Below are positions 2,497-32,993 of a stretch of DNA of 37,232 nt, piece by piece. Made by a program: the position numbers and the translations under genes. The notes beneath the pieces are model-generated. The model saw only the letters and a program-made list of their open reading frames with translations. It did no database searches and was not told the DNA's origin. Source of the stretch: a virus; IMG/VR virus record IMGVR_UViG_3300025637_000004; one strand, 5' to 3'. Each line of letters begins with the position of its first letter. Position 1 is the stretch's first letter.

Positions 2497-2507
2497 TTTT
2501 AGTTACT

Positions 2508-2722: not shown

Positions 2723-2804
2723 CACTAAAAAAGGGGGGAGTTAATACTTCCGTAAATACTCGTTAAAACACATGTTACCGGCCAGAATACCCGCCAAGAC
2801 ATTT

Positions 2805-11910: not shown

Positions 11911-13976
11911 TATCTTCTCGCTCCATAGGCTGAATTAATACCGTAACGAGACTCCATAGCGTCACCAACCCGGCCGCCGTTCATTTCGTCAATCATTTTG
12001 TCAACTGCTAGATCAATTGTAATTCCGCGCTCATCCTGCGAAACCGAGTGATTACCCGCCGGTGCGTTATTAATAACCACGCTTAATTTTTCGCTACTGC
12101 CTTTATCAACATTGTCTTTGCTTTGAACAAACTCGCCTTTTTGCAAAAAGTAAGTCCCGTCAGTGGGTACTGCACCGCCGTCATGCATAACACCGGCTAA
12201 ACCTGTTGCCAGTGCTGAAGTGTTAGTTATCGCTGCGGCCGCAGGAATAGCGTTGCCGCCAAAAGATGCAAGGCTCGTCATCGCCGCCGCTTGCGACCAT
12301 CCAAGCGCAACCGTTTTACCGGCTACTACTGCTGCTGCGGTTTCGTTGGCTAAAATAGATTTACCCATTGCAGCCATTATCATTTTTTTAACGCCAATTT
12401 CTACAAGCGTCGATAATATTTGCTTGCCCATATCAACAACAATTGATTTTGCAGCGTCACCTAGATTTTTTTGCTCAAAAACCGCATTTGCAACGGCGTT
12501 ACCGATACCAGCTGAAAACCTGTTCGCAGCATCATCCCAAATTGCAACCCATTCCTCTGCTGCCTTTATCGCCTGTTCGTTGTCCTCTTCATATTTTGTT
12601 TGTTTAATTTCTTCAAGATCAGCGTCTCGGGCTTCTTTTAACTGGCGAAGTAAATCAGCCTGCTGCGTGTCAGTTTCTAACGTGTTATCGAGAATTATCT
12701 GACGTCTTCTATTATAACTTTCATTAACCGCATTTTCTTCGCTTAATAACGATTGACGAACGCGCTCAAAAGCTCCACTTGTATCAGCAACAGCAACGCC
12801 AACGTCAATATTACCGCCGCCTGTATTTTCTTTCGATAGTGCAGCAGCCTTTGCGTTAGCGTTTGCAACTAGATTTATTGCGGCAACCGCCTTTCTCGCT
12901 TGGTCAAGCGGCATTTCTAACATCATTAATTTGTTAAGATCTTCAACAGCCGTACCAAGATCTGCAGTCATTTCTGAAGCAAGATTTTGTAATCCTTTGC
13001 TTGTTTCAGCCGTCACCCCGGGTATTTTATTTAAAACATTTGTAGCTACCCTATCAACGCCCGCCCAAGCCTCCAGAGTGGCGGCCGCATAGCCAATAAC
13101 AGCAACTTTTACAGAGGCCCAAATTACCTCCATTCCTCTTATCGTATTCCCTAAAAATCCAACGCCGGTAACTAAGCTTGATACAACTGATTTTGCAACA
13201 CTACCAAATCCCCCGGCCTCCTTCGCGGCATCCACAAAACGATCACTAATAGCTTCAACTAAGGGCGCGAGTTCAGTTGCCAAAGACTTACCAAAAGCAG
13301 AGTTAGTTTTTTGAACTTTTAAAAATGAATCATTCGCGGCTTCTATTTTTGCCAAATCAAACCGAGTTAACGTTATACCAAGCTCGTTCGCCTCTTGCTC
13401 CATTTCTGCTAAACCACCAGACCCGAGAGCTAGCGTATTCACTAACGAAACGCCTTCGGAGTCGAATAATTTCATCGCTAACCGGACACGATCACCAGAG
13501 TCGCCAACGTTATTCATGGCGTCCGCAAGAACAGAAAACTGTTGATCTGGCGACAGTTTTGCGAGGTCTTTGGCGTTTAAATTCAGCTCTGCTAAAGCTT
13601 TTACAGCCTCACCAGTACCTTGGCCAGCCTCTGCTACTCTTCGGGTCATCCGCTGAAGAGCCATGTTTGTGGTTTCAATCGAAACGCCGGTTAACTCGCC
13701 CGCGTAACCAATTGCGGTTAGCTTTTCCGGTAATATCCCTAACTTATCTGCTGTTTTAGCTAGTTTATCTGCTTCCTTTGCTGCCACAACGTAAGATGCT
13801 GCTATTGCTGTAACCCCGGCCGCAGCGACTCCTGCCATCATTTTGCCTACAGCATTTACCTCTGACCGTGTTTTTTTACCCCAGTTTTTTGTATATTTTC
13901 CCGCTTTTGTAAGCTCGGATCTTAGTTTTGCAGACTTAGCGACCAGATCAATTGTTAGCGTTGCAACTGTTGCCAT
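11910..13976 (-). CDS. Tail tape measure protein
   Basis: 688 aa, Ala/Gly-rich and helical. It carries a TP901-type tape-measure N-terminal domain (..TADKLGILPEKLTAIGYAGELTGVSIETTNMALQRMTRRVAEA..) and follows the chaperone pair. Confidence 0.9.
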   Translation of the reverse strand: MATVATLTIDLVAKSAKLRSELTKAGKYTKNWGKKTRSEVNAVGKMMAGVAAAGVTAIAASYVVAAKEADKLAKTADKLGILPEKLTAIGYAGELTGVSIETTNMALQRMTRRVAEAGQGTGEAVKALAELNLNAKDLAKLSPDQQFSVLADAMNNVGDSGDRVRLAMKLFDSEGVSLVNTLALGSGGLAEMEQEANELGITLTRFDLAKIEAANDSFLKVQKTNSAFGKSLATELAPLVEAISDRFVDAAKEAGGFGSVAKSVVSSLVTGVGFLGNTIRGMEVIWASVKVAVIGYAAATLEAWAGVDRVATNVLNKIPGVTAETSKGLQNLASEMTADLGTAVEDLNKLMMLEMPLDQARKAVAAINLVANANAKAAALSKENTGGGNIDVGVAVADTSGAFERVRQSLLSEENAVNESYNRRRQIILDNTLETDTQQADLLRQLKEARDADLEEIKQTKYEEDNEQAIKAAEEWVAIWDDAANRFSAGIGNAVANAVFEQKNLGDAAKSIVVDMGKQILSTLVEIGVKKMIMAAMGKSILANETAAAVVAGKTVALGWSQAAAMTSLASFGGNAIPAAAAITNTSALATGLAGVMHDGGAVPTDGTYFLQKGEFVQSKDNVDKGSSEKLSVVINNAPAGNHSVSQDERGITIDLAVDKMIDEMNGGRVGDAMESRYGINSAYGARR

Positions 13977-13989
13977 GATTTAACCTTTA

Positions 13990-14537
13990 TCAATTGCCCC
14001 AATTATCGGAGCGAGCATTTTGTAAAAAACTATCTGTGCGCTGTTTTCTGATTTTTTCTTGATCAGAAGTAAAGCCCATTTTGATCAACTGATAAACCAG
14101 CCTATATTCAAGCTCTTCTGCGTCGATATGCTCGGAAACTTCGCGGATAGAGCAGCCTAGCGCGTCACAAACTTCGATCAGCGCCATTAATTTAGGCTGG
14201 CTTATTAGTTTTTTTCTGTAGCCTCTACGTCTTCAATAACACTGGAGTCAGAACCAAGCGCAAAAGAAAATATTTGTGATATCGCGGTGGAAGACACATT
14301 TTTACGAAACAATGTAACTTCTCCTATTGAGACATCACCTCCTTTTACAAATTCGAGTGCTTTGGTGCTTATGTATTTCTCCAATTTTTCACCCTTCAAA
14401 TCAACCAAAGCGGCTTGCACATCAAACGCTTCTGCCGCACTAACCGGGCGAATATCGACAACTCCGACCCCGGCTACTTTTGTAGAAACCGGGGTTAGAA
14501 ATTGTTTAGAAATCAAATCATCGAAGCTAATACTCAT
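13990..14537 (-). CDS. Tail assembly chaperone frameshift product (gpGT analogue) made by a -1 shift at 14208-14214
   Basis: After A AAA AAC the -1 frame reads CTA ATA AGC CAG CCT AAA TTA ATG GCG... with no stop. It runs directly into the 65-aa ORF 13990..14187. Confidence 0.65.
14205..14537 (-). CDS. Tail assembly chaperone (gpG analogue)
   Basis: 110 aa and acidic, between the major tail and tape measure genes. It ends ...GAA AAA AAC TAA, which contains a slippery heptamer. Confidence 0.75.
   Translation of the reverse strand: MSISFDDLISKQFLTPVSTKVAGVGVVDIRPVSAAEAFDVQAALVDLKGEKLEKYISTKALEFVKGGDVSIGEVTLFRKNVSSTAISQIFSFALGSDSSVIEDVEATEKN
14208..14214 (-). promoter_or_regulatory. Programmed -1 ribosomal frameshift slippery heptamer A AAA AAC
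   Basis: An X XXY YYZ heptamer in the zero frame, directly before the gpG-like stop codon. The downstream -1 frame is open. Confidence 0.65.
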
Positions 14538-14981
14538 TTAAGCCACCTTGGTTAGTGCAGCAGGGCCATCTTGCTGACCTTTAATTCCAAACATCTGCTT
14601 CGCGTCGCCTTGGGCAGCCTCACCAGCATAATACCCGTTTAAAGCCAGCGTAATTTCGGTAACATCGCCAGATTGATAAGTTATTTTCATCATTACCTTG
14701 ATTCGAGCAATCGCGGCATTAATTAAAGCGTCTTGAACCGTAGAATCACCAACTCGATTAAAGGCAAGTTCCCATTCTGGCGGCGTTTGAACGCCGGGAA
14801 CATAGGTTTTGGTTAATTCGTCGATTGATGTGACTTCAACGAAAGAACCCTCAACGCCAACCTGCGGGATAGTCTCCACACCGGGAACCAGCGCATAAGT
14901 TACGCCGTCATCGGTTGAAAGCTCTAATACAGCGCCTTGCGCTACAACTACATTGCTTTGAACTACTGTTTGTTTAGCCAT
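14538..14981 (-). CDS. Major tail protein
   Basis: 147 aa, directly upstream of the chaperone pair. Good SD (AAGGTAATTAAAAATG context). Size and position match TP901-1/phi13-type major tail proteins. Confidence 0.7.
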   Translation of the reverse strand: MAKQTVVQSNVVVAQGAVLELSTDDGVTYALVPGVETIPQVGVEGSFVEVTSIDELTKTYVPGVQTPPEWELAFNRVGDSTVQDALINAAIARIKVMMKITYQSGDVTEITLALNGYYAGEAAQGDAKQMFGIKGQQDGPAALTKVA

Positions 14982-14995
14982 TTTTAATTACCTTG

Positions 14996-15376
14996 TTAGT
15001 CATAAAATAAAGTGAAGTCTATAGATTTCCTATAGAGTTTTGTTTCTGATTCAAACTCTGACCGCTCTTCTCCGACGCTTATTAATTGAATGTTATAACC
15101 ATAGTCGGCATTATTAATGCCATCTAACGCTTCTATTAAGATTTGCGCCAGCGAAGAGACAGTTGATAAACGATTTCCAAAAATATCGACCTGAAATTCT
15201 GAGCGTTTTTGCGCCGAGCTATTGTCAATATTTTTAGATCGCCTGCTATATATTTCTTGATATGTAATATATAAATCAGCTTGAGAGGGAGCTATCAACG
15301 CGTGTATTTGAGCACCTACAACGTTGGTTATTGCTTCTGTGTTAATTAGTATTTTATAAAATGCTTGATCAATCAT
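14996..15376 (-). CDS. Tail completion / tail terminator protein (DUF3168-like)
   Basis: 126 aa at the conserved position between the gp10-like and major tail genes. The pattern ..IHALIAPSQADLYITYQ......FQVDIFG.. is DUF3168-like. Confidence 0.6.
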   Translation of the reverse strand: MIDQAFYKILINTEAITNVVGAQIHALIAPSQADLYITYQEIYSRRSKNIDNSSAQKRSEFQVDIFGNRLSTVSSLAQILIEALDGINNADYGYNIQLISVGEERSEFESETKLYRKSIDFTLFYD

Positions 15377-15879
15377 CGTTTTTTTACCAATTTACGCCGC
15401 GCTAACTCAATACGCCGAATAAGGCGCGTTTTAAATAAAGAAACAGCCTTTGCGCTTTCTGAAACAGCTGGCCGGACAAATGGTTTAGCGACTCTGCGAG
15501 ATGTGCCATATTCGATAAAATAAGCGTAATAAGCTCGATGGACTCCAACAGAAACAATAGCTACATCATCATCTTTAAAGCCGCGCCTGTTTCTGCCGTT
15601 AGTTTTATTCATTCTTGATCGAATTTTTACTCGATCTTTCAACATGCCAGACCCAACTTGTAAAGATTTGCCTCTTTTTGATAAAGACTTTAGATCTTTA
15701 ACTTTTGTTTGCGAATCGGCCGGGCTTACTGGCGCGTTTTGCTTTATTTTTTGATGTATGGGTTTCGCTGCATCTCGCAACGCTGTTTTTAAAGTCTTAG
15801 CACCAAGTTCAGACCCTAAACCGAGCAAAGCTGTCTCTAATTCTTCCAACCCTAATATTTCTATTTCAGATTCGATCAT
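15373..15879 (-). CDS. HK97 gp10-family head-tail joining protein
   Basis: Motifs LGLEELETAL..LKTALRDAAKPI and YYAYFIEYGTSRRVAKPFVRPA are typical of the HK97 gp10 family. Confidence 0.8.
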   Translation of the reverse strand: MIESEIEILGLEELETALLGLGSELGAKTLKTALRDAAKPIHQKIKQNAPVSPADSQTKVKDLKSLSKRGKSLQVGSGMLKDRVKIRSRMNKTNGRNRRGFKDDDVAIVSVGVHRAYYAYFIEYGTSRRVAKPFVRPAVSESAKAVSLFKTRLIRRIELARRKLVKKR

Positions 15880-16205
15880 TCGACAACTTTACAAATAAAC
15901 TTTATTTCTTTATTTTTCATGCCCACATTCTCAGGAGGCGCTGTAACTTCAAAAATAAGCGACGAATATACAAGCCTGTATTTACTAGTAATCGTCGCGC
16001 TTATGCTGTCATATCGCATCAGTATTTTGTGCGTAGATTCTGCAATTTCTGCACTAGACGAATACTCTTCACCGCCAGCAAATCCAGTGATTTCACATCG
16101 ACGCTCTGCAACTAATTCCCAAGTAGAAACTGTTTGCCCAAAGTCGTCTTTTGCAATACCGGGATATTCAATTCTAACCCTATGACGTAAGTTCCCAGCT
16201 TTCAT
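15876..16205 (-). CDS. Head closure / head-tail adaptor protein (SPP1 gp16-like)
   Basis: MKAGNLRHRVRIE....DDFGQTVSTWELVAERRCEI....GEEY pattern of the Phage_H_T_join family. Confidence 0.8.
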   Translation of the reverse strand: MKAGNLRHRVRIEYPGIAKDDFGQTVSTWELVAERRCEITGFAGGEEYSSSAEIAESTHKILMRYDSISATITSKYRLVYSSLIFEVTAPPENVGMKNKEIKFICKVVE

Positions 16206-16756
16206 CCGAAAACCCTGTATTGATCTAAAAATGAGCTAATGCCAAGTGGAACTAGGTTCACTTTTCTATCGCTCGACCCCTCCCGGTTATTATAAAGATG
16301 GCCGACCATCAACAATACGCCGGTTTTTATTCCGTCGGGTACGTCTTGTGATGTAGCGTAGCCACTTATTACCTCTACTCTAATAGAATTTGGCCGATCA
16401 CTTACTAAAGGCCATCCCGCTGGAAATTCTATGAGTGAAGGGTAGCTGTACTGATCAAAATAATAATCTTCGGCACTTAAAGTTTGCTCGGAGCCGTTTA
16501 TATCGTCATATTTTAATGTAACGCTATTAACTCCTTCGGTATAAAGACGAAGAACAGAATCAAATCCATCAAAATAATAGGTATATGTTTGCGCCATTAT
16601 TGGCCGATTCATATAACGCTGCGCATAAGATTCTGCCTGCTCAATTAGAGATAATAAAAAAGCATCGTCTTCAGACCCCTCGATAATTAACAAAGTCTTC
16701 GCATCACTAACCGACACGCAATTTAGAACGGGTTTTGTTGTGATGCGCCTCTTCAT
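16202..16756 (-). CDS. gp6-like head-tail connector protein
   Basis: ..VSDAKTLLIIEGSEDDAFLLSLIEQAESYAQRYMNRPIM.QTY.. is typical of the gp6-like/QLRG connector family. Confidence 0.75.
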   Translation of the reverse strand: MKRRITTKPVLNCVSVSDAKTLLIIEGSEDDAFLLSLIEQAESYAQRYMNRPIMAQTYTYYFDGFDSVLRLYTEGVNSVTLKYDDINGSEQTLSAEDYYFDQYSYPSLIEFPAGWPLVSDRPNSIRVEVISGYATSQDVPDGIKTGVLLMVGHLYNNREGSSDRKVNLVPLGISSFLDQYRVFG

Positions 16757-19004: not shown

Positions 19005-20478
19005 AAATTACGCCTTTAATTTGTTGTTTTGCGTTACGCTGTACGTCTTGCATTGCAAACGCTGGGTCAGCCTCAAAATCTGATATTCTTTTATCAATAT
19101 AATTTCTGAATTTATCCGGGCTTGTAGCCATGTTTTCCGACAAATTTTCCTTATGGCGGAGATAGAATGAAGGAAGCCAATTCATAAATTCGGAAGGAGT
19201 CATTCTATCGGCTTCAAGCTGCAGCGCCTTTATTTCCTTGCTAGCCATATTCATAGCCGCGCTATCTGTCAATGATTGCTCCCGCTCTGATTGACTTGCC
19301 ATATTAAGCGGAAGAATAAACTCATCGAGTCCTTCAATACTCGGAAGATTCTCTTTGGCTCTGGCTTCGTTACGATTAATCCAGCCATCAGTGATGCCTT
19401 TGCCGTAAGCCTCATATCGCGTTGCTGTATCGCCGCGTAAAAGCCCCTCTACGGTGTGCGAGGCGTATAGACGCTGCTTCTCTGACTGCGTGAGTAAATC
19501 GCGCCAAATCGTCTGCTCCAGCCTTACTAGCCAAGGCCGGATAGTGTGAACAACAAAATCTATTGATTGATGCTCAATGTTAGAAAAAGTTGCTGCTGAT
19601 AGCTCTGCAAGCATGTGCGGAGGGACTCGATACCAACGAGCAATTTCTGTTATTTGAAATTTTCGAGACTCTATAAATTGCGAATCTCTAGCGGTCATGC
19701 CTACAGCACTATAAGACATTCCAGACTCTAAAATTAAAGGCTTTCCAGAATTCTTTGTACCTTGATAATGCTCTGCAAATTGATTGCGCAGGTTTTCTAT
19801 CTGCTCTGGGGTTAATGTTTTTTCAAATTCTAACGTCCCGCTGGTCTGAGCACCGTTGGCGTACATATAATTTGCAAGAGATTCCGTAGCAAGTGCGGCA
19901 CCAACTCCCTCGCGAGCTAACGATATAGGCGAAAGTCCTGTAACTCCGTTGCTACCCAGGCCGGCAACCCTCCAAATGTCTTTGGTTTTAAAATTGTTAG
20001 CATTGCCCCCTTCTTGATAATCAAATACCAGCTGTCCTTTGCTATCTCGATCAATATTCATATATCGAGAATTTAACGGGTTGATCTGAACAACAACACC
20101 ATTTCGGCGTATTAACTGTGAATATGCGTTACCTCTAAGACCTAAATTAGTCATAATGAACTCACGCAATTCAAACGCAGTTTGTTCACCATTTGAAGAA
20201 TTACCAAGCAACGCATTTAGTGGGTGCGACGCTATCTGTCTATTACCTTTTGCGTCCGACTCATAGATTTTTAAGGGCAAGCTAGCGATAGTTTCAGCTA
20301 AAATTCTGACGCAGCCGTAAACTGCAGAAACACTCATTGCAGAATCAGGGGTAACTGCCACACCAGCAGCCGTATTGTTTTGCGTGAATAGCGTTTGCCG
20401 CCACCACTCAGGTTCTTTTAGTGTAGCGTTTTGAAACCCGCTCGGCCCGCTGACCAAATCTTTTAGTAAATTTATCAC
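18997..20478 (-). CDS. Portal protein, HK97 family
   Basis: 493 aa. Motifs ..AVYGCVRILAETIASLPL.., ..GLRGNAY.., ..FQITEIARWYRVPPHML.. are typical of PF04860 portals. Confidence 0.92.
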   Translation of the reverse strand: MINLLKDLVSGPSGFQNATLKEPEWWRQTLFTQNNTAAGVAVTPDSAMSVSAVYGCVRILAETIASLPLKIYESDAKGNRQIASHPLNALLGNSSNGEQTAFELREFIMTNLGLRGNAYSQLIRRNGVVVQINPLNSRYMNIDRDSKGQLVFDYQEGGNANNFKTKDIWRVAGLGSNGVTGLSPISLAREGVGAALATESLANYMYANGAQTSGTLEFEKTLTPEQIENLRNQFAEHYQGTKNSGKPLILESGMSYSAVGMTARDSQFIESRKFQITEIARWYRVPPHMLAELSAATFSNIEHQSIDFVVHTIRPWLVRLEQTIWRDLLTQSEKQRLYASHTVEGLLRGDTATRYEAYGKGITDGWINRNEARAKENLPSIEGLDEFILPLNMASQSEREQSLTDSAAMNMASKEIKALQLEADRMTPSEFMNWLPSFYLRHKENLSENMATSPDKFRNYIDKRISDFEADPAFAMQDVQRNAKQQIKGVIYE

Positions 20479-22142
20479 AATGTTATAAATCCTCTTTCTA
20501 AATACGCATGGCCATCGTCAGCTTCTACTCTAATTATTCTCGATAGAGCAGTAATTAATGCAACAATGCCATCTATTTTGTTATCGGCTCGCTCTTTGCG
20601 CGGGAATACATTTTCATTTCTATCGGGCTCGCATGTGACATTTGAAGCCATCCAATTCAATACAGGGTTATCGCCATGATGAATTTTACCAGCCATTACC
20701 AAAGCTTCTAACTCCTTCATTGCTTCCGACATATTTTTTACAGTTTGCGGAACTTCTATCATTGGTGCTCCATCGCCTAATAAATGATTGGCCATTTGAA
20801 CACTTCCCCACGGGTCAAAAGCTACTTCTTGAACGTTATACTCACTTAAAAGCTCTCTAATATCTTCCTCGATAGTTTCGTGATCAATAATATTACCCGG
20901 CGTTGTTATTAAAAAACCGCTCTCTGCCCATAATTGGTACATAACTCCGATAGTTTTAGACTTAGCGGAAATATTATCTTCGGGAATATAAAAGCGACTT
21001 TTAACATGATAGTCTTTGCCGTCCTTGAAAACGCATACCACAGCTGCAATATCTAATTTGTTAGCCAAATCAATTCCAATCCAACAAGGCATTATTTGCA
21101 ACGATTCATCACTTGCAATTCGTGGCGCTCGCTCCCAGAACTCCATGTTCAACCAAACGCTAGCGGTTGTTACCCACCGATTTAATCGCTTAGTTAAAAA
21201 ATTATTCTTAGCTGTTGTTTGCTCTTTTGCTTTTAGGGCGAGTCTTCTAATATCGTCCCACTTCACCGATACCCCGATATTAGGGTTAGCTTTAATCCAT
21301 TTAGATTCATCAAGCCAATCGTCTTCGTCGTCTAGCGTGTAAATTACCCCAAAGTAACTTTCATCAGAAGCAAGGCTTCCAAGTATCTTTGTAACGTAAT
21401 CGCGCTGTTCATAGCAAATACCCTGCTGATTGCTTCCTGCTGTAGTAATTGCAACAATCATTGGCTGCCGTCTTGCCCCAGTTGCGGTTTCTAGGACGTC
21501 CCAGACCTCTCTTGTTTTGTGAGCATGTAACTCATCAACAACCGCGCCAGATATATTTAACCCGTCCAAAGAATTTGCGTCAGCAGATAACGGTTCAAAC
21601 TTTGAATAACTAGACTTATTGTGAATATTATTCCTATGAACGCCAAAGGATCTGCGTAATTCAGGAGATTTGTTGATCATCTCTGAAGCGTCATTGAATA
21701 CGATTTTCGCCTGATCTTTTTTAGTCGCTGCGCTGTAAACCTCTGCTCCGGGTTCTGAATCGAAGCCGGTCAAAAATAAAGCTATACCACTCGATAAAGT
21801 AGACTTCGCATTCTTTCGAGCAACTTCTATATAAGCCGTTCTGAATCTGCGTAGGTTATCTTTTACCTGATACCAACCAAAAAGGTTAATTAATATAAAA
21901 GCTTGCCAAGGCTCAATTTCAACAGTCTGACCTGCGAGCTCACCCTTAACGTGTTTTATAAAAATATCGTAAAAATCTAAGATTCTTTGGGCTTCTAGCT
22001 GATCAAAATACAATCCTTTTGCTTCTGCATTTTCTAAGTCATCAATAAAACGTTCACACGCTTGCTTAACTAATCGACCAGCCACAACTTCGCCCGCAAT
22101 TACTTGGTCTGCATAGCGTAGCGCGTCCTGAATTTGTGCCAA
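20475..22142 (-). CDS. terL: Terminase large subunit
   Basis: 555 aa. Walker-A-like ..YIEVARKNAKST.., DELH Walker B (VVDELHAH) and a C-terminal RNaseH-like nuclease region. It follows terS. Confidence 0.92.
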   Translation of the reverse strand: MAQIQDALRYADQVIAGEVVAGRLVKQACERFIDDLENAEAKGLYFDQLEAQRILDFYDIFIKHVKGELAGQTVEIEPWQAFILINLFGWYQVKDNLRRFRTAYIEVARKNAKSTLSSGIALFLTGFDSEPGAEVYSAATKKDQAKIVFNDASEMINKSPELRRSFGVHRNNIHNKSSYSKFEPLSADANSLDGLNISGAVVDELHAHKTREVWDVLETATGARRQPMIVAITTAGSNQQGICYEQRDYVTKILGSLASDESYFGVIYTLDDEDDWLDESKWIKANPNIGVSVKWDDIRRLALKAKEQTTAKNNFLTKRLNRWVTTASVWLNMEFWERAPRIASDESLQIMPCWIGIDLANKLDIAAVVCVFKDGKDYHVKSRFYIPEDNISAKSKTIGVMYQLWAESGFLITTPGNIIDHETIEEDIRELLSEYNVQEVAFDPWGSVQMANHLLGDGAPMIEVPQTVKNMSEAMKELEALVMAGKIHHGDNPVLNWMASNVTCEPDRNENVFPRKERADNKIDGIVALITALSRIIRVEADDGHAYLERGFITL

Positions 22143-22613
22143 TTATTTCTTTTTATTGCCCTTCATAAATGCAGATGCCGCGTCCTCTTCTTCTGGCGCT
22201 ACAGTGCTAACTTTAGTACGACTAGAAGGCGTCATGCCAAACTCAACAAGCAAAGCTTTCATCTGATCAAAAGATTTATTGCTGATTTGAAGGTACGGAG
22301 ATTGAACCGGGAAACCAGACGGAGCTTTTATAACTGGGCCATACTTCGCTAGACTTTGATTTGCAGTCTGCCATCGCGCAAAAACTTCGCAGTACATCGC
22401 TAATGCATGAGTATCAAGATTAGTTAATACCTCAGCCTCTCTAAGCTGTTTTGAAACTATGGCCCAACATTTCTTAGCTCCATCACTTAAATGATCAGGC
22501 ATTTTAATCGCGTCGGCCTTTGGTTTAGCTTCGTTTTTAATCATCCTGCTCGGTTGTGCGGTTCCGGTGAGCAGCTTTAGTGCTGTGGGTTTGGGCTTTC
22601 TTCCTGCGGCCAT
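22143..22613 (-). CDS. terS: Terminase small subunit, P27 family
   Basis: The N-terminus MAAGRKPKPTALKLLTGTAQPSR and overall size match the P27-family small terminase. Confidence 0.85.
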   Translation of the reverse strand: MAAGRKPKPTALKLLTGTAQPSRMIKNEAKPKADAIKMPDHLSDGAKKCWAIVSKQLREAEVLTNLDTHALAMYCEVFARWQTANQSLAKYGPVIKAPSGFPVQSPYLQISNKSFDQMKALLVEFGMTPSSRTKVSTVAPEEEDAASAFMKGNKKK

Positions 22614-23365
22614 TACGCTGCCCCTTCGTTTATTTGGAGCGTGCGGGTCGGCGTCACACCGCCGCTGTGCTGCTGGTCGCAGCCATCGCTTAACTTCACA
22701 CGCTTTAAACCTTTGTACATTCCTGCGCCCATATCTTCAATTTTGGAGAATGGCAAAATAGGAACCGTTAATTTTTCTTGGTATGATTTATCGATGAAAT
22801 AAACATACCTAAGTTGAAACCCTGGAAGCAGCTTGGCCCCGGAATCCATAGCAATGCGGCTTCCAAACTTACCTCCGGAGGAATTGTTAGGATTATCTAG
22901 CGATTTCTTTGCAACTATTTTTCCATTCGGCATCTTGAGCATTTGTGTGTTTTTCTTAATTCCTGTTAAGCAGAAACCACTCGCCCGATATATTGTTCCG
23001 TCTCCACATTGCGCCCCATCGCTAAAACTAATAATCCACTTTATATTATTGTATCTTTTTTTAATCAATCTCATCGCAAACCCAATAGCGCGAGATTCGC
23101 TGTATTTTGGTAGCGCCTCACTGAATGCCATTCGATTCAATTCCATAAAATCATTCCAGAGCGTCCCATCAACCAATTTTGATGTTTTTCGAATATCAAT
23201 ACTAACTCCGAACTGCATAGCCCCCTCTAGTTTCCCATTAAGAAAAACTCCCAGGTGAAGACGGCTATTGTTTACAATCTTCCCGCTATAGTGAATTTTC
23301 TTGATAACCGCGTTCGCTGCGGCTGCGGTGATCGGCTTAATAATAATATCTTTTGCGCTAGGCAT
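22613..23365 (-). CDS. Mom-like GNAT-fold protein (putative DNA base-modification enzyme)
   Basis: Motif series IKKIHYSGK..LGVF..G.LEGAMQFG...ELNRMAF...P.YSESRAIG...IISFSD...GDGTIYRASGF..TG....RYVYF. This matches the phage family that RefSeq labels as Mom family adenine methylcarbamoylation protein (from memory; not searched). Confidence 0.5.
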   Translation of the reverse strand: MPSAKDIIIKPITAAAANAVIKKIHYSGKIVNNSRLHLGVFLNGKLEGAMQFGVSIDIRKTSKLVDGTLWNDFMELNRMAFSEALPKYSESRAIGFAMRLIKKRYNNIKWIISFSDGAQCGDGTIYRASGFCLTGIKKNTQMLKMPNGKIVAKKSLDNPNNSSGGKFGSRIAMDSGAKLLPGFQLRYVYFIDKSYQEKLTVPILPFSKIEDMGAGMYKGLKRVKLSDGCDQQHSGGVTPTRTLQINEGAA

Positions 23366-23981
23366 TTTGCGACTCTAACCACTGATTACAGATAAAAGAT
23401 ATTGCGTTACCGTTGCTGTTATCATTTATCCCAGTGTCTGAAATTGGGTTTGTCCTGGCCAATGTTACAGCTTCCTCAACATTTTGCGCTTGTTCATCGT
23501 GGAGGGTAAACGTTCGTTGCTGGAATGGATCTCGCCCGCCGTCGGGTAATTCAGGAAGACCCGTTTCAATATCAACTAGCTTACTAATAACGTCCTCGTC
23601 AAACCCCAGGAGCTCCAAATCAAAATCAAATTCTTTCAGGCTGTCAACTTCCAGCCTTAGCGCATCCAAATCCCAACCAGCATTGAGCGCCAATTGGTTG
23701 TCAGCGATCACGTACGCTTTTCGCTGTGACTCCGACATATGCGAAAGGTTAATAGTGGGAACTGAACCCAGCCCCAGTTTCTTCGCAGCCAATAAACGCC
23801 CATGCCCTGCAATGATTCCATTATCACCATCAACAAGAATTGGGTTCGTAAATCCAAACTCCTTAATGCTTGAAGCGACCTGCGTTACCTGTTCATCGCT
23901 GTGCGTTCTAGAGTTTCGAACGTAGGGAATCAAATCCGCTGTCGGCACATATTTAATGGTTAGTTCGTTATTATTTTCCAA
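23358..23981 (-). CDS. ParB/Srx-like N-terminal (nuclease) domain protein
   Basis: TTG start with SD GGGGG. The motif LIPYVRNSRTHSDEQVTQVASSIKEFGFTNPILVD..GIIAGHGRLLAAKKLG, followed by the linker GWDLDALRLEV..L.EFDFDLELLGFDEDVI, is the form seen in ParB-methylase fusions. Confidence 0.8.
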   Translation of the reverse strand: MENNNELTIKYVPTADLIPYVRNSRTHSDEQVTQVASSIKEFGFTNPILVDGDNGIIAGHGRLLAAKKLGLGSVPTINLSHMSESQRKAYVIADNQLALNAGWDLDALRLEVDSLKEFDFDLELLGFDEDVISKLVDIETGLPELPDGGRDPFQQRTFTLHDEQAQNVEEAVTLARTNPISDTGINDNSNGNAISFICNQWLESQNA

Positions 23982-24047: not shown

Positions 24048-24434
24048 CTATAGAGATTTGACCCGCCCCCGCCCTCGTCCAGTTTCTAGCTCTGTCTTCT
24101 CGCTGTGGCAAAGCGCGCATAGACTCTGCAAATTCGACTCGTCATCGGTTCCGCCTTCTGCTTTTGGAATGATATGGTCGACTTGATTGGCGGGTACTAT
24201 CTTGTTTAAATTCTTGCTGTGATTAACGCAGATAAAATTATCTCTGATTAATACAATATTTCTAAGCTTTCTCCAGGCGTAACCGTAGCCGCGCTGGTTG
24301 CTGTTGCCATGCTTGACTTGATGCCTGCCCCAACCTGTTTCGTTATCTTTATGCTGATTGCAGTATCTATTACCTGACTCTGCTACATGGTGGCAAACGC
24401 CGAATCCGCATACTTTGCCCGGACGCATCGGCAC
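24048..24434 (-). CDS. HNH endonuclease (terminase-associated type)
   Basis: ..RGYGYAWRKLRNIVLIRDNFICV...VDHIIPKAEGGTDDESNLQSLCALCHSEKT is a classic HNH motif. It lies upstream of a P27-type terS and an HK97-type portal. Confidence 0.88.
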   Translation of the reverse strand: MPMRPGKVCGFGVCHHVAESGNRYCNQHKDNETGWGRHQVKHGNSNQRGYGYAWRKLRNIVLIRDNFICVNHSKNLNKIVPANQVDHIIPKAEGGTDDESNLQSLCALCHSEKTELETGRGRGRVKSL

Positions 24435-24700
24435 TATTTATTAACAACGTTAATAGTTAAGGTGCGTTCATCAGTTCGGCCTGTCGCTGTTGTTATAGTG
24501 TTAACAGTGCTGTATGAATTGCCAATAAATCCACCCGAAAGCCAAACTGAAGTTGAGGTGGTAGTGTTGAAGTTATTTACTATTGTTATACCTGTAGTTG
24601 CTGACCAGTTACTAGCCGTAATCGTGTCGCCGGCTAGCCAATCTTCCCAATTGATAGAGTAATCCAAAATGGCATTTGGGTCTTTTTGAAACTTTTTCAT
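24434..24700 (-). CDS. Small beta-sandwich virion protein, fibre-to-tail adaptor-like
   Basis: Probable start is the ATG at 24700 (the track uses TTG at 24706). The pattern KDPNAILDYSINWEDWLAGDTITASNW....TSVWLSGG..GNSY.V.N.ITTATGRTDERTL.I recurs in phage proteins encoded beside fibre genes. Confidence 0.4.
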   Translation of the reverse strand: MKKFQKDPNAILDYSINWEDWLAGDTITASNWSATTGITIVNNFNTTTSTSVWLSGGFIGNSYSTVNTITTATGRTDERTLTINVVNK

Positions 24701-24801
24701 TACCAATTTTCCTTAGCTTTAGCTGCTCTATGTGCAGTAGCTACAACATCTAATGTATTTTCAATTGAAAGATTTTCAAACATCGCCGTACTTGTTTCAG
24801 T

Positions 24802-25185
24802 CTATACAGTGTATTCGCGTATTTCTTTGTTTACTTTAACTTCCCTGTTTTGAGAATTTATTCTTAAAGTACGCAATTCAAAGCTTGGTTTATAAAGTCG
24901 ATCTTCTGTTTGAACCGAAATTGCCCTTAGCTCAGTTAGTACGTTTAAAACTCGTGGAGATAGCCCAAGTGATACTAAGTTAGGGTTTTGATTGTTTAAA
25001 TGCTCCCAGAAATTTGTTCCGGGCTGGACAGGAAGAGCACTGTAATTAGTAACTAACTCCCACAAATTTCCCGGGGCAATACCTGAGTTTACTCTAGATT
25101 TTTGATTATTTAAGTGATCCCACAGGCTATTTCCAGACTCAACAGGAAGCGTGCTATTACTAGTTACTAGCTGCCACAGTGTCAT
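24802..25185 (-). CDS. Hypothetical protein with an internal 38-aa duplication
   Basis: LWQLVTSNSTLPVESGNSLWDHLNNQ (aa 3-28) against LWELVTNYSALPVQPGTNFWEHLNNQ (aa 41-66). It overlaps the upstream gene by 4 nt. Confidence 0.6.
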   Translation of the reverse strand: MTLWQLVTSNSTLPVESGNSLWDHLNNQKSRVNSGIAPGNLWELVTNYSALPVQPGTNFWEHLNNQNPNLVSLGLSPRVLNVLTELRAISVQTEDRLYKPSFELRTLRINSQNREVKVNKEIREYTV

Positions 25186-25514
25186 GGGTATGCTTCAGCA
25201 CCCAAGATCGCTGCCTTAGTTCCCTCTATGATGTCTGATTTGTCTTGAACAGTGACACCCGCTGAATAGATCTCAAGCGCGCCATCCCAATTGATTGTTC
25301 CTTGGTTTAAAAAAGTTGCGCCGTTAAAAAATCTAACGCTGTACAATCCTGCTGCAGCAGTAGGCATATCACCTATATAAATTGAAAGGGCACCTACCTC
25401 ACTACAACTTATTGACTCTGAAATAAGTACTCCCGCATTGTCATAAACATCAGCTGTAACAGTGAATCCTGTGTCCGTATCAGGATTTCCCAAATATTGT
25501 AATTCCCCTGACAT
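25182..25514 (-). CDS. Hypothetical protein of the fibre module
   Basis: 110 aa, coupled to neighbours inside the collagen-fibre cluster. No motif recognised. Confidence 0.5.
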   Translation of the reverse strand: MSGELQYLGNPDTDTGFTVTADVYDNAGVLISESISCSEVGALSIYIGDMPTAAAGLYSVRFFNGATFLNQGTINWDGALEIYSAGVTVQDKSDIIEGTKAAILGAEAYP

Positions 25515-25531
25515 TTACGCCACCTTTTAAA

Positions 25532-27481
25532 TTAAGTAATTTTTTTAATCGTTAGTGTGCTTTCCCCTGCGGCCATCGTGGCATTTACCGCTCCATTTGA
25601 TGTTTCATTGCCGAGCGGAACGGTTAACACAAGATTACTTCCACTACGCTCGATAAGGTAATTAACGATGTGGGTACTACTTTCGTTGTGATTAGCACTA
25701 AGACGCACATAACCTGTTGCTGGTCTAATTGACTGCACAACACCGCCCAAAGCAAACCTCGCGCTTACACTACTACGCGTACCACTGGTCGATGCGATAA
25801 AAGTATTATGCGAAAGTTCGTAGATTCCATCCTCGCTCAAAGTGATCGTGTATCCATCCGATGAAAGAGTAAACCAAGAGGGCGTACCACCAACTGACGG
25901 TGAACTGTAAGCTACTTTGTGTATACCGTTGTGTGCGGCATTTCCGGGTACTAGAAGGGGCGCTCGATAAAGACATTCAAGCATAACGGGGACAACAGTG
26001 CCGCCAGAGGTTACAGCCGCTACTGCAGTATCTACGTAATCTTTGCGAGTTAAATGGTCAGCCGATGTAGGGGCTACTGAACTTGATACATTACCCGTCA
26101 AGGTACCGCCAGCTAAAGGCAGGTAATCTGCTACCTCGCTGTCTACATAATCTTTACGCGTCAAATGGCCTGCTGCGGTGGGTGCTCCTGTACCTTCCAG
26201 AACACCTGTAACCTTTGCTCCCGTATCAGTTGTCTCGAACTTTGCGACATTGTCATAATATAAAGCTACGCGTCCTTCTCGTTTAGCTAATATAGCCGTA
26301 CGACCGTTTATTCCAGCAGAGTCTTGCAAGTACAGGATAGTGAGGTTAGCACCTACGGCTTGCAGCTTGTAACTAGCAGTAGCACAACGAGCAGATATAG
26401 AAGCACTTGAGTCTGTATTAATTAAGTTGACTGCTGTACCCGCATTAATAGCACCTGAAGCTGCTATGCTTCCTGAAACATTCACTCCACCTGCTCCGGT
26501 TGTTACGCGAGAATTTCCGTCGTAATGAAGTATCGTAGAGCCACCATCTACAAAACTCGCGTGGAATGCTGTGCCGTCAGCGTTGGCTATGTTGTTTGCT
26601 TGATACTTAACGCCCGCAGTTGTTGAGTAAGAATCAGCAGTTAAGTGCCCGCTGATTTCCGCATCAGCACCATCGGCTCCGGCAGCGCCTGTAGCTCCAG
26701 TATTTCCAGTTAAACCTTGAATTCCTTGCGGGCCGGGGTCGCCTTGACTGCCTTGTGGCCCGGCTGAACCAACGCCTTCAATTCCTTGAGGGCCTGCTGC
26801 TCCGGTTTCGCCTTGGATTCCTTGGCTTCCCTGATCGCCTGTTAAGCCGATTGGGCCTTGCAGCCCTTGCATTCCGGGCGCACCACTCACATCGACAATA
26901 AAATTATAAGCCGTACCATTCCACAAATAAAGACGGGAGTTTTCCGCATTTGAAACATCACCCGTATCGATAATTGCAAACTCGCCAGCCAGAATTCCTG
27001 TTGGTGATGTGTCTGCATTTAACGCAGCTACGCTAGAATAAGTTTTTGTAACTTGAAAGCCTTGACCGCTCGGACCTTGCTGGCCTTCAATTCCGGTTTG
27101 ACCAATAATCCCCTGAATTCCTTGCGGGCCTTGAATTCCTTGTGCTCCGGGAGGGCCGGGTACTGTACTATTTTCTCCTGCTGCACCTGTTAAACCCTGA
27201 ATCCCTTGCAAGCCTTGCAAACCTTGGGGGCCGGGAACTGTGCTATCTGCACCCGCTGCGCCGTCAGATCCTGGTGGGCCAGAATTTCCTTGAATTCCAT
27301 GATCGCCCTGCAAACCTTGCGGGCCTGGTACAGTTGATTCAGTACCCACTGGCCCTGTATTTCCCACTTCTCCTTGTATTCCTTGGGGGCCTTGAGGCCC
27401 AACTACCGTACTATCTAAACCTGCTGGGCCTTGTATGCCTTGAGGGCCTTCGGTTCCTTGCGGTAAATTAAAAACTTTCAC
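25532..27481 (-). CDS. Collagen-like triple-helix repeat tail fibre protein
   Basis: GTG start with SD GAGGA 6 nt upstream. The N-terminal third consists of G-X-Y blocks (GPQGIQGPAGL.., GPQGLQGDHGIQGNSGPPGSDGAAG..) punctuated by DSTVPGPQG. A second collagen block follows, then a beta-rich C-terminal domain with two HLTRKDYVD repeats. Confidence 0.85.
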   Translation of the reverse strand: MKVFNLPQGTEGPQGIQGPAGLDSTVVGPQGPQGIQGEVGNTGPVGTESTVPGPQGLQGDHGIQGNSGPPGSDGAAGADSTVPGPQGLQGLQGIQGLTGAAGENSTVPGPPGAQGIQGPQGIQGIIGQTGIEGQQGPSGQGFQVTKTYSSVAALNADTSPTGILAGEFAIIDTGDVSNAENSRLYLWNGTAYNFIVDVSGAPGMQGLQGPIGLTGDQGSQGIQGETGAAGPQGIEGVGSAGPQGSQGDPGPQGIQGLTGNTGATGAAGADGADAEISGHLTADSYSTTAGVKYQANNIANADGTAFHASFVDGGSTILHYDGNSRVTTGAGGVNVSGSIAASGAINAGTAVNLINTDSSASISARCATASYKLQAVGANLTILYLQDSAGINGRTAILAKREGRVALYYDNVAKFETTDTGAKVTGVLEGTGAPTAAGHLTRKDYVDSEVADYLPLAGGTLTGNVSSSVAPTSADHLTRKDYVDTAVAAVTSGGTVVPVMLECLYRAPLLVPGNAAHNGIHKVAYSSPSVGGTPSWFTLSSDGYTITLSEDGIYELSHNTFIASTSGTRSSVSARFALGGVVQSIRPATGYVRLSANHNESSTHIVNYLIERSGSNLVLTVPLGNETSNGAVNATMAAGESTLTIKKIT

Positions 27482-32143: not shown

Positions 32144-32223
32144 TTTTCCTCCACCAGCGCGGCGGCTTTCTTCAGAAAACCGGACAGTGTGTCGGCAGAA
32201 TTAACGCGCCAGTATTCACCCAT
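32140..32223 (-). CDS. Micro-ORF (27 aa), coupled on both sides
   Basis: TAATG overlap with the methylase-like gene stop and ATGA overlap with the next gene. Translates to MGEYWRVNSADTLSGFLKKAAALVEEK. Confidence 0.25.
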   Translation of the reverse strand: MGEYWRVNSADTLSGFLKKAAALVEEK

Positions 32224-32818
32224 TACACAGCACCCCATTGAGCCGCCATAGCATCTGCCAGACCTTGATACGTTGTGCTGCGGATCTTCCAGCGATCCTT
32301 GCTAGGCGGCAGATAATGCAATCTTTCTCGTTGATTTTTTGGCAGCTTCATCATCGCTTCTTTGACGTTGTTGGTTGCCTGGATCGGTTCCAACCCTTTC
32401 AACCAAAGGCACGTCGCTTTCTGCTCAGGGTGACCAAACATATAGGGCTGAACAACCTGGCTTTGCTTGACCCTTCCGATCAGGGCTTTTGAGTATTTGT
32501 GCATGACTGGATTTTCTATCGCCACCTTTGCGATTGGCGCAGTGAGTAATTGCCTAAAAAACTCTCCCCTTCAAACAATTTTGGCCAACGGCTAGTGTCT
32601 TTGTGCAAGTGTTGAACACCAGAATTAGCAAGATAGGTGCACGGCGGATGCGCGATCATTAAGTCCCAGCCATCATTGATAATATCGAACACGTCCCCCT
32701 GGTGGTGGTTGCCCTCAATGTCCGTCGGCAATAGATCACAACTCCAGGCCTCATGACCCTGTTTAGCAAACGCTTCTCGAACTCGACCAGAATATTCACA
32801 AGCTACCAACACCTTCAC
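32223..32818 (-). pseudogene. DNA cytosine-methyltransferase-like gene split by a frame break at a homopolymer (sequencing error, phase variation or -1 frameshifting)
   Basis: GTG at 32818 with SD GAGGA 5 nt upstream. Frame A reads MKVLVACEYSGRVREAF...DLMIAHPPCTYL...LFEGESF. Frame B reads FFRQLLTAPIAKVAIENPV....RSTTYQGLADAMAAQWG. The two frames join if the A6 run at 32556-32561 were A7. Confidence 0.55.
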
Positions 32819-32828
32819 ACCGCAATCC

Positions 32829-32993
32829 TCATTTCGTTCTCCTGTAAAATTCATCCGTGGTGATTGATTTACCAAGTCGTAACTCTTCCCGCGATAAACT
32901 ATCAAGATCGTACGCCCGCTCTCGTCGTGAGATTCGCGCTAACATTTCTGCTTCTTTTAAATCCAATGGAAATAATCGATCTGGCTTTAACAT
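32829..32993 (-). CDS. Small 54-aa protein, absent from the ORF track
   Basis: The ATG overlaps the upstream stop (TAATG). Its stop lies just before the methylase SD. Translates to MLKPDRLFPLDLKEAEMLARISRRERAYDLDSLSREELRLGKSITTDEFYRRTK. Confidence 0.45.
   Translation of the reverse strand: MLKPDRLFPLDLKEAEMLARISRRERAYDLDSLSREELRLGKSITTDEFYRRTK

Follow-up and report, generated by a model that had tools for sequence, protein, structure and literature searches.

A ParB-fold protein, a Mom-family protein and a tRNA-Gly-like RNA as a candidate three-part DNA-hypermodification cassette of phages

Three elements next to the terminase genes

The window studied here is the complete 37,232-nucleotide stretch of DNA in the IMG/VR virus record IMGVR_UViG_3300025637_000004. 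Directly upstream of its terminase genes, on the minus strand, lie a gene for a ParB-fold protein of 207 residues (23358..23981), a mom-family gene with an open reading frame (ORF) of 250 codons (22613..23365) and, within the 3' tail of the mom ORF, a tRNA-Gly-like RNA gene of 69 nt (22635..22703). The two protein-coding genes overlap by 8 nt (ATGCCTAG, 23358..23365), with the ATG of mom inside the end of the ParB gene, which suggests that their translation is coupled. A preliminary description of the locus had reported this arrangement of the two ORFs and proposed that a Mom-like enzyme stands in place of a methylase; the arrangement and all the motifs quoted there are present. In the clade of Mom proteins to which the window belongs, ParB and Mom are one inherited, obligate unit, and most members of the clade also carry the RNA gene.

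The 250-residue protein is a genuine Mom-family GNAT, as the preliminary description had supposed from its motifs, and belongs to a subclass that lacks several features specific to Mu Mom. The profile searches proposed there match it to PF25680 with E=2.1e-52 (178.2 bits against a cut-off of 27.1; residues 7-208 on positions 2-202 of the 202 in the profile) and to phrog_1384 with E=2e-47. Mom of phage Mu (structure 8BV8) is found by phmmer with E=8e-25 at an identity of ~31%. The AlphaFold2 (AF2) model, with a predicted local distance difference test (pLDDT) of 82, has 8BV8 as its best structural match in Foldseek (E=3.7e-18, template-modelling score 0.75); other GNATs follow at ~1e-6, about 12 orders weaker. 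The GNAT/Mom core, residues 7-208, is encoded by 22742..23347 and has a pLDDT above 80 throughout.

The functional residues of Mu Mom have been set by two mutational studies (PMC7261163; PMC13219725). H25, Y26, R78, S91, D116 and Y126 of the window protein correspond to H58, Y59, R111, S124, D149 and Y159 of Mu Mom (in the 241-residue Mu numbering), and these six active-site residues are invariant in 128 of 128 clade members. Other features of Mu Mom are missing. The 33-residue N-terminal extension of the Mu protein, whose basic segment 11-19 is modelled in contact with tRNA, is absent, and W48, required for the Mu dimer, is replaced by A15 in the window and by K, A, Q or S in the clade. Where Mu Mom has a helix-turn-helix (HTH)-like insertion (175-209), indispensable for activity and modelled in contact with DNA, the window protein has an insertion of similar length (~145-177, with short helices at 153-156 and 168-174), in which the sequence is not conserved and W181 is absent.

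The functional Mom protein probably ends near residue 222. Residues 199-222 (LTVPILPFSKIEDMGAGMYKGLKR, 22700..22771) form a segment specific to the clade, where its form is ...LTVPILPFSKIxxMGAGMYKGxKR with invariant or near-invariant columns in two alignments, while it does not occur in Mu Mom. The orthologue in Psychrobacter phage vB_PmaS_Y8A (hereafter Y8A) terminates right behind this segment, which is a candidate region for contact with a partner. Beyond it the earlier picture of a single 250-residue protein has to be revised. The motif series is present, while the last ~29 codons (222-250) contain no peptide motif, and what is found there is the tRNA-like gene followed by the stop. The last 33 residues of the ORF are predicted to be disordered in the AF2 model. 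A conserved 'GGxTPTxTLQ' end of the ORF was at one stage read as a ParB-docking peptide; this was discarded, as in other loci the corresponding stretch falls into any of the three frames or past the stop.

The preliminary description had also treated the chemistry and target of the pair as an open matter; as regards the chemistry of Mom, this has been overtaken by the literature. Mu Mom moves glycine from Gly-tRNA-Gly to the N6 of adenine in double-stranded DNA (dsDNA), and the adduct rearranges to N6-carbamoylmethyl-dA (PMC13219725). It is the first enzyme shown, in 2026, to use a charged tRNA for DNA modification, and the authors take the acceptor end to be the part of the tRNA that is probably recognised (PMC13219725).

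The 207-residue partner consists of a ParB N-domain, a helical linker, a flexible linker and a small C-terminal domain specific to Mom-linked proteins. Its gene starts with TTG, ahead of which stands the Shine-Dalgarno sequence AAGGGGG. The AF2 model contains a confident N-domain (residues 9-96, 23694..23957, pLDDT 85-91), helices in 105-137, a disordered stretch at 139-158 and two C-terminal helices. The match to ParB_N (PF02195) is just over the threshold (27.9 bits against 26.3); the PHROG ParB families phrog_15396 and phrog_620 match with E ~1e-55 to 1e-58, and the top PDB matches of the model in Foldseek are CDP- or CTP-bound ParB, Noc and KorB (E ~1e-6). The model for partition ParB proteins, TIGR00180, scores below its threshold (28 bits against 58), and there is no ParA-type gene among the Pfam-annotated neighbours. 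Neither Pfam nor the AF2 model gives the protein an HTH DNA-binding domain or a fused enzyme. The protein belongs to the ParB-CTPase fold and is not a partition ParB.

The residues that contact the nucleotide, R25 (the N-terminal Arg), S38 and G43 (Box I) and G59-H-G-R62 (the GxxR of Box II), are kept according to a hidden Markov model alignment to 7BNK, 7NFU and 6SDK, which extends up to about residue 85, and the columns are invariant in the alignment of homologues. Residues 59-70 read GHGRLLAAKKLG. The Asn of Box III, N95, is probably also kept, this assignment being made by eye from an invariant ADN motif.

The helical linker, residues 105-137 (23571..23669), reads 'GWDLDALRLEV...FDFDLELLGFDEDVI' and has predicted helices at 105-117, 122-125 and 129-137. 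It is a segment common to the fusions of ParB and DNA methylases, and in phages the N-terminal part of such fusions shares 55-74% identity with the N-domain and linker taken together. The methylase of Psychrobacter phage pOW20-A, for example, is 65% identical over ParB residues 5-151, where its alignment ends, and lies in the same genomic slot before the terminase. The N-domain is thus of the methylase-fusion type, as had been proposed.

The preliminary description was right that this ParB has no fused enzyme; however, the protein is not simply truncated. Residues 143-202 (23376..23555), with the pattern LPxLPDGxRDPFQQKTFTLHDEQA...NSNGNAIxxICxQWL and two predicted helices, are highly conserved among 35 homologues and form a domain of their own, for which there is no match in Pfam. 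A strand-helix-helix dimerisation domain is one possible reading of it, and the idea of a ribbon-helix-helix fold is backed by no tool. The 80 closest ParB N-domains in IMG/VR comprise 36 ParB-methylase fusions, 16 proteins with the C-domain of the window type, eight with another short C-terminus and 20 others. The window-type C-domain is followed by Mom in 16 of 16 cases and is found in none of the 36 fusions, while the other short C-terminus (…DQGKLDxLxPKxxxCPxCGxEF…) is followed by Mom in eight of eight. These counts give good support to the proposal that a Mom has taken the place of the methylase.

ParBs of this second Mom-linked type have ~170-183 residues, and their CPxCG motif is possibly a zinc knuckle. 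They pair with a different Mom subclade (SYADxxxxHHGGIYQ, with the end ...LAKPYPKR), and the tRNA-like element is present in all eight loci. A ParB with the same type of N-domain as the window protein also stands alone in Vibrio phage X29 (201 residues; positions 140-745 of our locus L101), directly before the small and large terminase genes (TerS and TerL) at the left end of the genome, with no Mom or methylase. In some cases, then, this type of ParB may serve a function beside the terminase that is its own.

The tRNA-Gly-like gene can be written as GCGTGTG-AAGTTAAGCGATG-GCTGC/GACCA/GCAGC-ACAGC-GGCGG/TGTGACG/CCG(A)CC-CGCACGC-U-CCA. Codons ~222-244 of mom run through it, and the frame stops 20 nt past the RNA. 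The 5' strand of the acceptor, G1-C2-G3-U4-G5-U6-G7 (GCGUGUG, 22697..22703), pairs in seven of seven positions with 22639..22645, the strand C66..C72 (CGCACGC), which ends in C70-G71-C72 and is followed by U73 and an encoded C74-C75-A76, this 3' part as a whole being 22635..22645. In place of the D arm there is a linker of 13 nt (AAGUUAAGCGAUG). It is followed by an anticodon-like hairpin (GCUGC-GACCA-GCAGC, 22669..22683) with A34-C35-C36 and a covarying stem, by a variable region (ACAGC) and by a T-arm-like hairpin (GGCGG-UGUGACG-CCG(A)CC, 22646..22663) with a one-base bulge in its 3' strand. With the shortened D region, G33 instead of U33 and the bulged T stem this is not a canonical cloverleaf. 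The RNA has the full identity set of bacterial tRNA-Gly for glycyl-tRNA synthetase (GlyRS), i.e., G1:C72, C2:G71, C35, C36 and U73 (PMC10464925).

Co-inheritance of the three elements

A scan of IMG/VR with clade-specific peptides gave at least 600 stretches, 578 of which encode a relative, and in the best 80 loci ParB lies directly upstream of Mom on the same strand in all 78 that are informative. The corresponding scan of GTDB, with one genome per species, gave 153 loci. In the best 80 of these, ParB is upstream in 77 of 77 informative cases, directly so in 63, the remainder being long ORF overlaps or ParB-Mom-Mom arrangements. Combined, ParB is upstream of Mom in 155 of 155 informative related loci, while it is found in none of 80 Mu-type Mom loci with flanks of up to 4 kb. 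There is also no ParB beside Mom in Mu, pAEv1818, PAN70, Riggi and the Enterococcus phage, which were inspected individually.

The two genes overlap, by 1-34 nt, in 140 of 145 related pairs. Pairwise distances between the ParBs correlate with those between the Moms (r=0.69), a value that none of 500 Mantel permutations reaches. That ParB and Mom behave as one inherited unit is borne out by the linkage, the overlap and the correlated distances. Fusions of ParB and Mom were looked for in ~360 sampled loci and in the 150 best representatives (50% identity; maximum length 346 residues), and none was found.

The pair is widespread, with hundreds of loci in IMG/VR, ~150 GTDB species, one cultured phage and cultured strains. 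Assigned hosts include Proteobacteria, Clostridia, Bacilli, Spirochaetes, Planctomycetota, Acidobacteria, Actinobacteria and others. Within GTDB a metagenome-assembled genome of Marinomonas holds the closest relative (71% identity), and the sole carrier of the clade among 50,697 GenBank phage records is Y8A (ParB 71%, Mom 58-59% identity), where the cassette adjoins an unrelated terminase. More generally it occurs beside unrelated types of terminase, and in Clostridia it lies between TerS and TerL.

Several arrangements of the cassette deserve mention in their own right. Tandem divergent Mom paralogues (ParB-MomA-MomB) are seen in twelve loci, and such tandems may give rise to heterodimeric Moms. 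Eight of these are Clostridial prophages with the order HNH-TerS-ParB-Mom-Mom-tRNA-like gene(s)-long ParB protein-TerL, in which the long protein is probably a ParB-methylase. Y8A has a second, divergent Mom elsewhere in its genome (ORF69, 22% identical; 2394-3158 in our stretch L003), which has no ParB. A noticeable share of the IMG/VR contigs, those of ten loci and others, end ~0-170 nt upstream of ParB. A physical genome end (the cos/pac neighbourhood) may often be where the ParB-Mom-terminase block stands, or this may be a boundary of assembly or prophage prediction.

The RNA gene follows the same clade. A nhmmer profile built on its 3' part has one match in the window (E=2e-11) and, among 159 ParB-Mom loci, detects the RNA in 123, in each case on the strand of mom. 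It has matches in none of 80 Mu-type loci, none of 36 ParB-methylase loci and none of seven other phages. Relative to mom it occurs in all three reading frames, or up to ~90 nt past the mom stop; the conservation is thus not at the peptide level.

Its conserved features are those of a tRNA. The acceptor stem is paired in seven of seven positions in 112 of 116 distinct copies, with 39 different strands, as against 0.8% of shuffles. All 112 of these begin with GCG; C70-G71-C72 is found in 115 of the 116 and U73 in all 116. CCA is encoded in 102 of the 116, and in most of the others this position is T-rich, as it is in tRNA genes without an encoded CCA. In at least 87 of 116 the loop has 7 nt and contains C35 and C36, the triplets being ACC (57), UCC (26), GCC (2) and CCC (2), all of them glycine.

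Covariation points in the same direction. When a structure-blind MAFFT alignment is analysed with RNAalifold, both the stem of the anticodon-like hairpin and the T stem emerge from it. For each of the six pairs in the anticodon stem, 19-42 of 86 sequences are doubly compensated; in the T stem 99.8% of cells are paired, with compensatory changes at three pairs. Helix cells are paired in 92% of cases, against 69% when shuffled, and doubly changed cells number 212, against 56, neither of which is reached by any of 500 shuffles. The covariation score is 0.575, against 0.149 for shuffled alignments (0/500 as high), and registers slid by 1-3 columns give at most 0.136. From this covariation and the tRNA layout, 22635..22703 is a real structured RNA gene of tRNA descent. 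The GC-rich element resembles lambda-type cohesive ends, and a reading of it as a cos site was dropped on the same grounds.

There are two size classes, one of 67-70 nt with a reduced D region, to which the window RNA belongs, and one of 73-77 nt. Some relatives have the canonical T loops TTCAAAT or TTCGATC. ARAGORN annotates tRNA-Gly(UCC) at the same position in three relatives of canonical size, and tRNA-like genes with odd anticodon loops in four Clostridial prophages. In Y8A two tandem, unannotated tRNA-Gly-like genes of 68 and 69 nt with UCC loops lie between mom and TerS (OQ059336 7786-7853 and 7858-7926, i.e., 7662-7729 and 7734-7802 of our stretch L001), and the ParB-linked Mom there is ORF17, annotated as 'hypothetical'. 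In the same record ParB lies at 6521-7132 and this Mom at 7125-7778.

When IMG/VR is searched with nothing but the RNA pattern, at least 120 hits are obtained, and Mom is next door in 109 of the 111 that are informative. In 96 loci the RNA comes after Mom, with ParB present in 91 and the ParB region cut by the contig end in five. One further locus has ParB ~1.9 kb upstream of Mom, past our adjacency limit. In 12 loci the RNA precedes Mom and no ParB is detected, which is a third architecture. As the adjacency to Mom includes these 12 ParB-free loci, the partner of the RNA is Mom itself.

A possible mechanism and its alternatives

We suggest that a ParB activator, Mom and a dedicated glycyl-carrier RNA are co-inherited as the three components of a cassette for DNA hypermodification, which lies in the late (packaging) operon. 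We put the probability of this at about 55%. RNase P and 3' processing would free the RNA from the late transcript, and the GlyRS of the host would charge it with glycine. By homology with Mu Mom, the enzyme would most likely take the glycine from the charged carrier and transfer it to the N6 of adenine in dsDNA, after replication and before packaging. The bulky adduct on the phage DNA would block restriction enzymes, and the cassette, by this analysis, probably shields the phage DNA from those of bacteria.

The RNA keeps just what is needed by bacterial GlyRS, RNase P and the CCA enzyme, namely the identity set, the acceptor-T minihelix and CCA. The reduced D region, A34, the lack of U33 and the bulged T stem would leave it an RNA that is charged with glycine and poor in translation. 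It could then serve the phage as a private glycyl donor, usable in any host. ParB would be an obligatory activator of Mom or a factor by which Mom engages DNA, and it may make up for the features of Mu Mom that are missing here, i.e., the basic N-terminal extension, the W48 dimer contact and R151, discussed below. A precedent for this role is ParB176, an obligate activator, on dsDNA, of a subclass of phage thymine dioxygenases (PMC13229309). More tentatively, and at somewhat below even odds, it can be speculated that this large and mostly uncultured clade of phage Mom is a self-contained three-part machine, in which a translation-incompetent mimic of tRNA-Gly would be an orthogonal donor and ParB an NTP-binding loader or activator on dsDNA.

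Several observations weigh against the three-component cassette. Glycine modification, charging of the RNA and dependence on ParB are all predicted, from sequence and models. R151, essential in Mu Mom, corresponds to A118 in the window, inside an invariant QCGDG loop with a conserved Cys; in the clade the column contains T, C, A or S and Arg in 0 of 128, and it is also not conserved in the Moms of Riggi, the Enterococcus phage and Y8A (ORF69). The loss of R151 may go with a different chemistry, donor or target. In E. coli, Mu Mom is active without a partner, and so are two metagenomic homologues picked at random, which may or may not be of this clade (PMC13219725). On the side of ParB, Q52 and E93 of the Myxococcus xanthus protein, which act in CTP hydrolysis (PMC13229309), are N23 and H60 in the window; in the precedent itself no stable complex of ParB with its enzyme was trapped, and mutants of the NTP site are still active (PMC13229309).

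The RNA adds points of its own to this list. About 20% of the ParB-Mom loci have no RNA match at the thresholds used. ARAGORN finds no tRNA in the window, and Rfam gives no family, either at the gathering threshold over the whole window or in a permissive scan of 22300..23000. The fold of the window RNA is somewhat, but not greatly, more stable than that of shuffles (z=-1.8). Its D region is reduced, and efficient glycylation is not assured. Purine-4 with pyrimidine-69 is preferred by an alpha2beta2 GlyRS, and U4:A69 and a truncated D arm are disfavoured by at least one such enzyme (PMC10464925); the window RNA has U4:A69 (family consensus GCGTG...CACGC). Finally, if the RNA were released from the operon transcript, the mom message would be severed ahead of its stop codon, so the element could equally tune the dosage of Mom.

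This last point leads to an alternative that we regard as unlikely, namely that the element is a signal for RNA processing or regulation and not a co-substrate. The late transcript would be cleaved or folded at the boundary of mom and the terminase genes, by RNase P, RNase Z or factors that bind tRNA, and this would set the dosage of Mom, e.g., by a truncated mom message, or uncouple the expression of the terminase. Punctuation of transcripts by tRNA-like elements occurs in other systems, and the element is exactly at the junction of mom and the terminase, often inside the tail of the mom ORF, where in the window its excision would take away the mom stop codon. In Mu, Mom is toxic and under heavy, tight control, with Com annotated as its translational regulator, and the Y8A paper mentions the controls of mom by C, Dam and OxyR. 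However, an acceptor-T minihelix would suffice for such a signal, yet C35, C36 and U73, which belong to glycine identity, are kept across phyla (PMC10464925), and glycine is precisely the group that is moved by Mom (PMC13219725). Nor does a signal at the end of mom fit the 12 loci in which the RNA is upstream of mom, or Y8A, where two tandem copies lie past the mom stop.

That ParB controls the expression or timing of a toxic mom, as a functional analogue of Mu Com or of DndB, a repressor of ParB-like type, or that it is a packaging accessory of terminase and HNH that shares a hotspot with mom, is likewise improbable in our judgement. The second Mom-linked ParB type ends in CPxCG, a possible zinc knuckle, and Mu Com is a small zinc-finger protein. 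The 12 loci with RNA and Mom are without ParB, and in X29 a ParB stands directly before TerS with no Mom. ParB-fold transcription regulators include DndB and KorB (PMC12704722), the latter among the Foldseek matches of the window protein, which itself has no HTH. The terminase-adjacent locus is a known hotspot for ParB and modification genes (PMC4738411); however, the linkage of ParB and Mom persists beside unrelated terminases, and between TerS and TerL in Clostridia. The same N-domain is also fused in cis to DNA methylases, where the regulation of a separate gene is impossible, the C-domain of the window type occurs only with Mom (16/16), and the experimental precedent is one of enzyme activation on dsDNA, not of expression control (PMC13229309).

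Still less probable is a cassette that is Mu-like in outline and has another chemistry or target, which could be another acyl or aminoacyl group, another base, RNA or protein. The tRNA-like RNA itself might be the substrate, as with the GNAT toxins TacT and AtaT, and GNATs that acetylate charged tRNA exist (PMC13219725). The replacement of R151, the invariant QCGDG loop with its Cys and the absence of the N-terminal extension and W48 speak for it. Set against these losses, R111, thought to handle the DNA base, is invariant together with the rest of the active-site set, Mu Mom is the closest structure by far, and the indispensable insertion of Mu has a counterpart of similar length in the same place. 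The RNA retains its glycine identity, and the position in a late operon beside packaging genes fits the protection of DNA.

A relic, either an attP-type copy of a host tRNA-Gly gene or an ordinary phage translation tRNA that is there by chance, is very improbable, for although tRNA gene fragments at attP are frequent in temperate phages, the window phage has an integrase and some relatives have a canonical tRNA-Gly(UCC), the integrase gene (1543..2496) is ~20 kb away, the element is of full length with both acceptor strands and not a 3' fragment, it keeps a fixed place relative to mom across phyla (109 of 111 pattern hits abut Mom), it lies internally in four prophages whose contigs run several kb or more beyond the stretch analysed on both sides, its common non-canonical features (the T-stem bulge, and A34-C35-C36 in most) would not be copied from diverse host tRNAs, and the ACC anticodon and truncated D arm speak against decoding.

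Genome context, related systems and implications

The window is a complete phage genome. An exact direct repeat of 127 bp at 1..127 and 37106..37232 indicates a circular assembly of ~37.1 kb, and several metagenome samples contain contigs near-identical to it. The phage is a marine, temperate HK97-like siphovirus, with the integrase mentioned above, a Cro/CI-like HTH protein, SSB, NinG and a long late operon on the minus strand. The order in the operon is lysis genes, a collagen-repeat protein, a Gp77-like adaptor, HNH, ParB, mom, TerS, TerL, portal, ClpP-type protease and HK97-type capsid. The HNH endonuclease gene (24048..24434, minus strand; Pfam HNH E=2e-12, phrog_144) is separated from the ParB gene by 66 nt and belongs with the terminase to an HK97-type packaging set. 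Directly downstream of mom are the terminase genes, small (P27 family) and large (20475..22613, minus strand); TerS covers 22143..22613, and its ATG and the stop codon of mom have 1 nt in common. Megablast found no match to the region in the 50,697 phage records; only protein-level searches were informative. A scan for promoters and terminators around the cassette found no more than expected by chance.

Two other regions of the genome can be noted. The adjacent minus-strand ORFs at 32516..32905 (129 residues) and 32223..32525 (100 residues) overlap by 10 nt and correspond to the N- and C-terminal halves of phrog_757, 'DNA methyltransferase' (E ~1e-26 each), with no Pfam family; they are one gene, split or frameshifted, or else a protein in two parts. 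Upstream of the HNH-ParB-Mom-terminase block, 24434..27481 on the minus strand holds a gene for a 649-residue protein with collagen triple-helix repeats (25532..27481), two small ORFs and a gene resembling the Gp77 fibre-tail adaptor (24434..24706). This is an unusual site for fibre-type genes, distant from the main tail module (3565..16756, including a 2366-residue GpJ-like protein).

The system closest to the window Mom is Mu Mom itself (PF25680; 8BV8), with which it shares family, fold and the six active-site residues; at the site of the HTH-like insert it has an insertion of similar length. An anti-restriction function is ascribed to both phage genes, and both are linked to glycine and tRNA-Gly; Mu mom is expressed late, and the window gene is in a packaging operon. 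The window protein differs by the absence of the 33-residue extension, W48, W181 and R151 and by its conserved C-terminal segment. The genetic setting is also different. The window clade has no Com and is always behind a ParB-fold gene and usually ahead of its own tRNA-Gly-like gene, while Mu relies on the tRNA-Gly of the host and needs no partner (PMC13219725).

The ParB component is most similar in design to the ParB176 partner of 5mYOX176 (O'Toole et al., PNAS 2026, PMC13229309). In both, an adjacent cognate ParB has an NTP-binding domain, a short helical segment, a flexible linker, a small C-domain and no HTH. The enzymes of both kinds are split into ParB-linked and ParB-free clades, and lie in phage hypermodification neighbourhoods, often with terminase. 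However, the partner there is an Fe/2OG dioxygenase, whereas here it is a GNAT-fold Mom, no RNA component is reported for 5mYOX, and the C-domain of the window ParB has no detectable family.

In genomic position the cassette resembles the fusions of ParB with N6/N4 DNA methyltransferases (phrog_498; PADLOC MTase_II), which belong to the 'ParB-terminase (Tls) locus' of Iyer et al. 2013, as cited in PMC4738411. Besides the similar N-domain and linker, these share the slot between late-regulation or HNH genes and the terminase, and are predicted to modify DNA around packaging. In the window, by contrast, ParB is a separate protein with a C-domain of its own, the enzyme is a Mom in the next, overlapping gene, and there is an RNA element of a kind that none of the 36 fusion loci contains.

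For the RNA, the nearest parallel is the non-proteogenic tRNA-Gly of Staphylococcus aureus, which serves FmhB, FemA and FemB (PMC7826273). It likewise keeps GlyRS identity while its D and T regions deviate, and it supplies a non-ribosomal transferase without competing for the Gly-tRNA pool (PMC7826273). That tRNA is, however, full-size, chromosomal and used in cell-wall synthesis, whereas the RNA described here is encoded by phages, often 67-70 nt long and fused to the gene of the transferase, and the presumed acceptor is DNA. Phage tRNAs and viral tRNA-like structures are also virus-encoded, cloverleaf-derived RNAs with CCA, and the members of canonical size are tRNA-Gly(UCC) to ARAGORN. Unlike these, the element is tied to a single enzyme gene and not to codon usage, and it mostly has a reduced D arm, a bulged T stem and an ACC 'anticodon'.

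The ParB and the Mom are thus each of a known kind. What appears to be new is their obligate pairing, with a ParB C-domain specific to Mom, and above all the tRNA-Gly-like gene fused to mom. The preliminary description had presented the pair as, so far as known, an undescribed system. In our literature search, which did not extend to Iyer et al. 2013 (NAR) and 2009 (Cell Cycle), no description of the ParB-Mom pair was found, and nothing linking Mom with a tRNA-like gene. There is now a precedent for ParB activators (PMC13229309), and the system has a third part, the RNA gene, beside the two proteins.

The locus brings together two threads of 2026, the use of tRNA by Mu Mom and the requirement of some phage DNA-modifying enzymes for ParB, and the mom-fused tRNA-Gly-like gene is in neither of them. 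With one cultured carrier, Y8A, and cultured strains, the predictions can be tested directly. If the RNA is the glycyl donor, comparative genomics confirms the tRNA-dependent mechanism independently, and the carrier and enzyme would be a compact orthogonal pair for the labelling of DNA. The cassette would be the first DNA-modification system known with a tRNA-like co-substrate of its own, and it would extend the dependence on ParB to an unrelated enzyme fold, which leads to the prediction that ParB-fold proteins are general adaptors of post-replicative DNA modification. For the phage, such a cassette would avoid both draining the tRNA of the host and depending on it, and would make the anti-restriction module portable across bacterial phyla.

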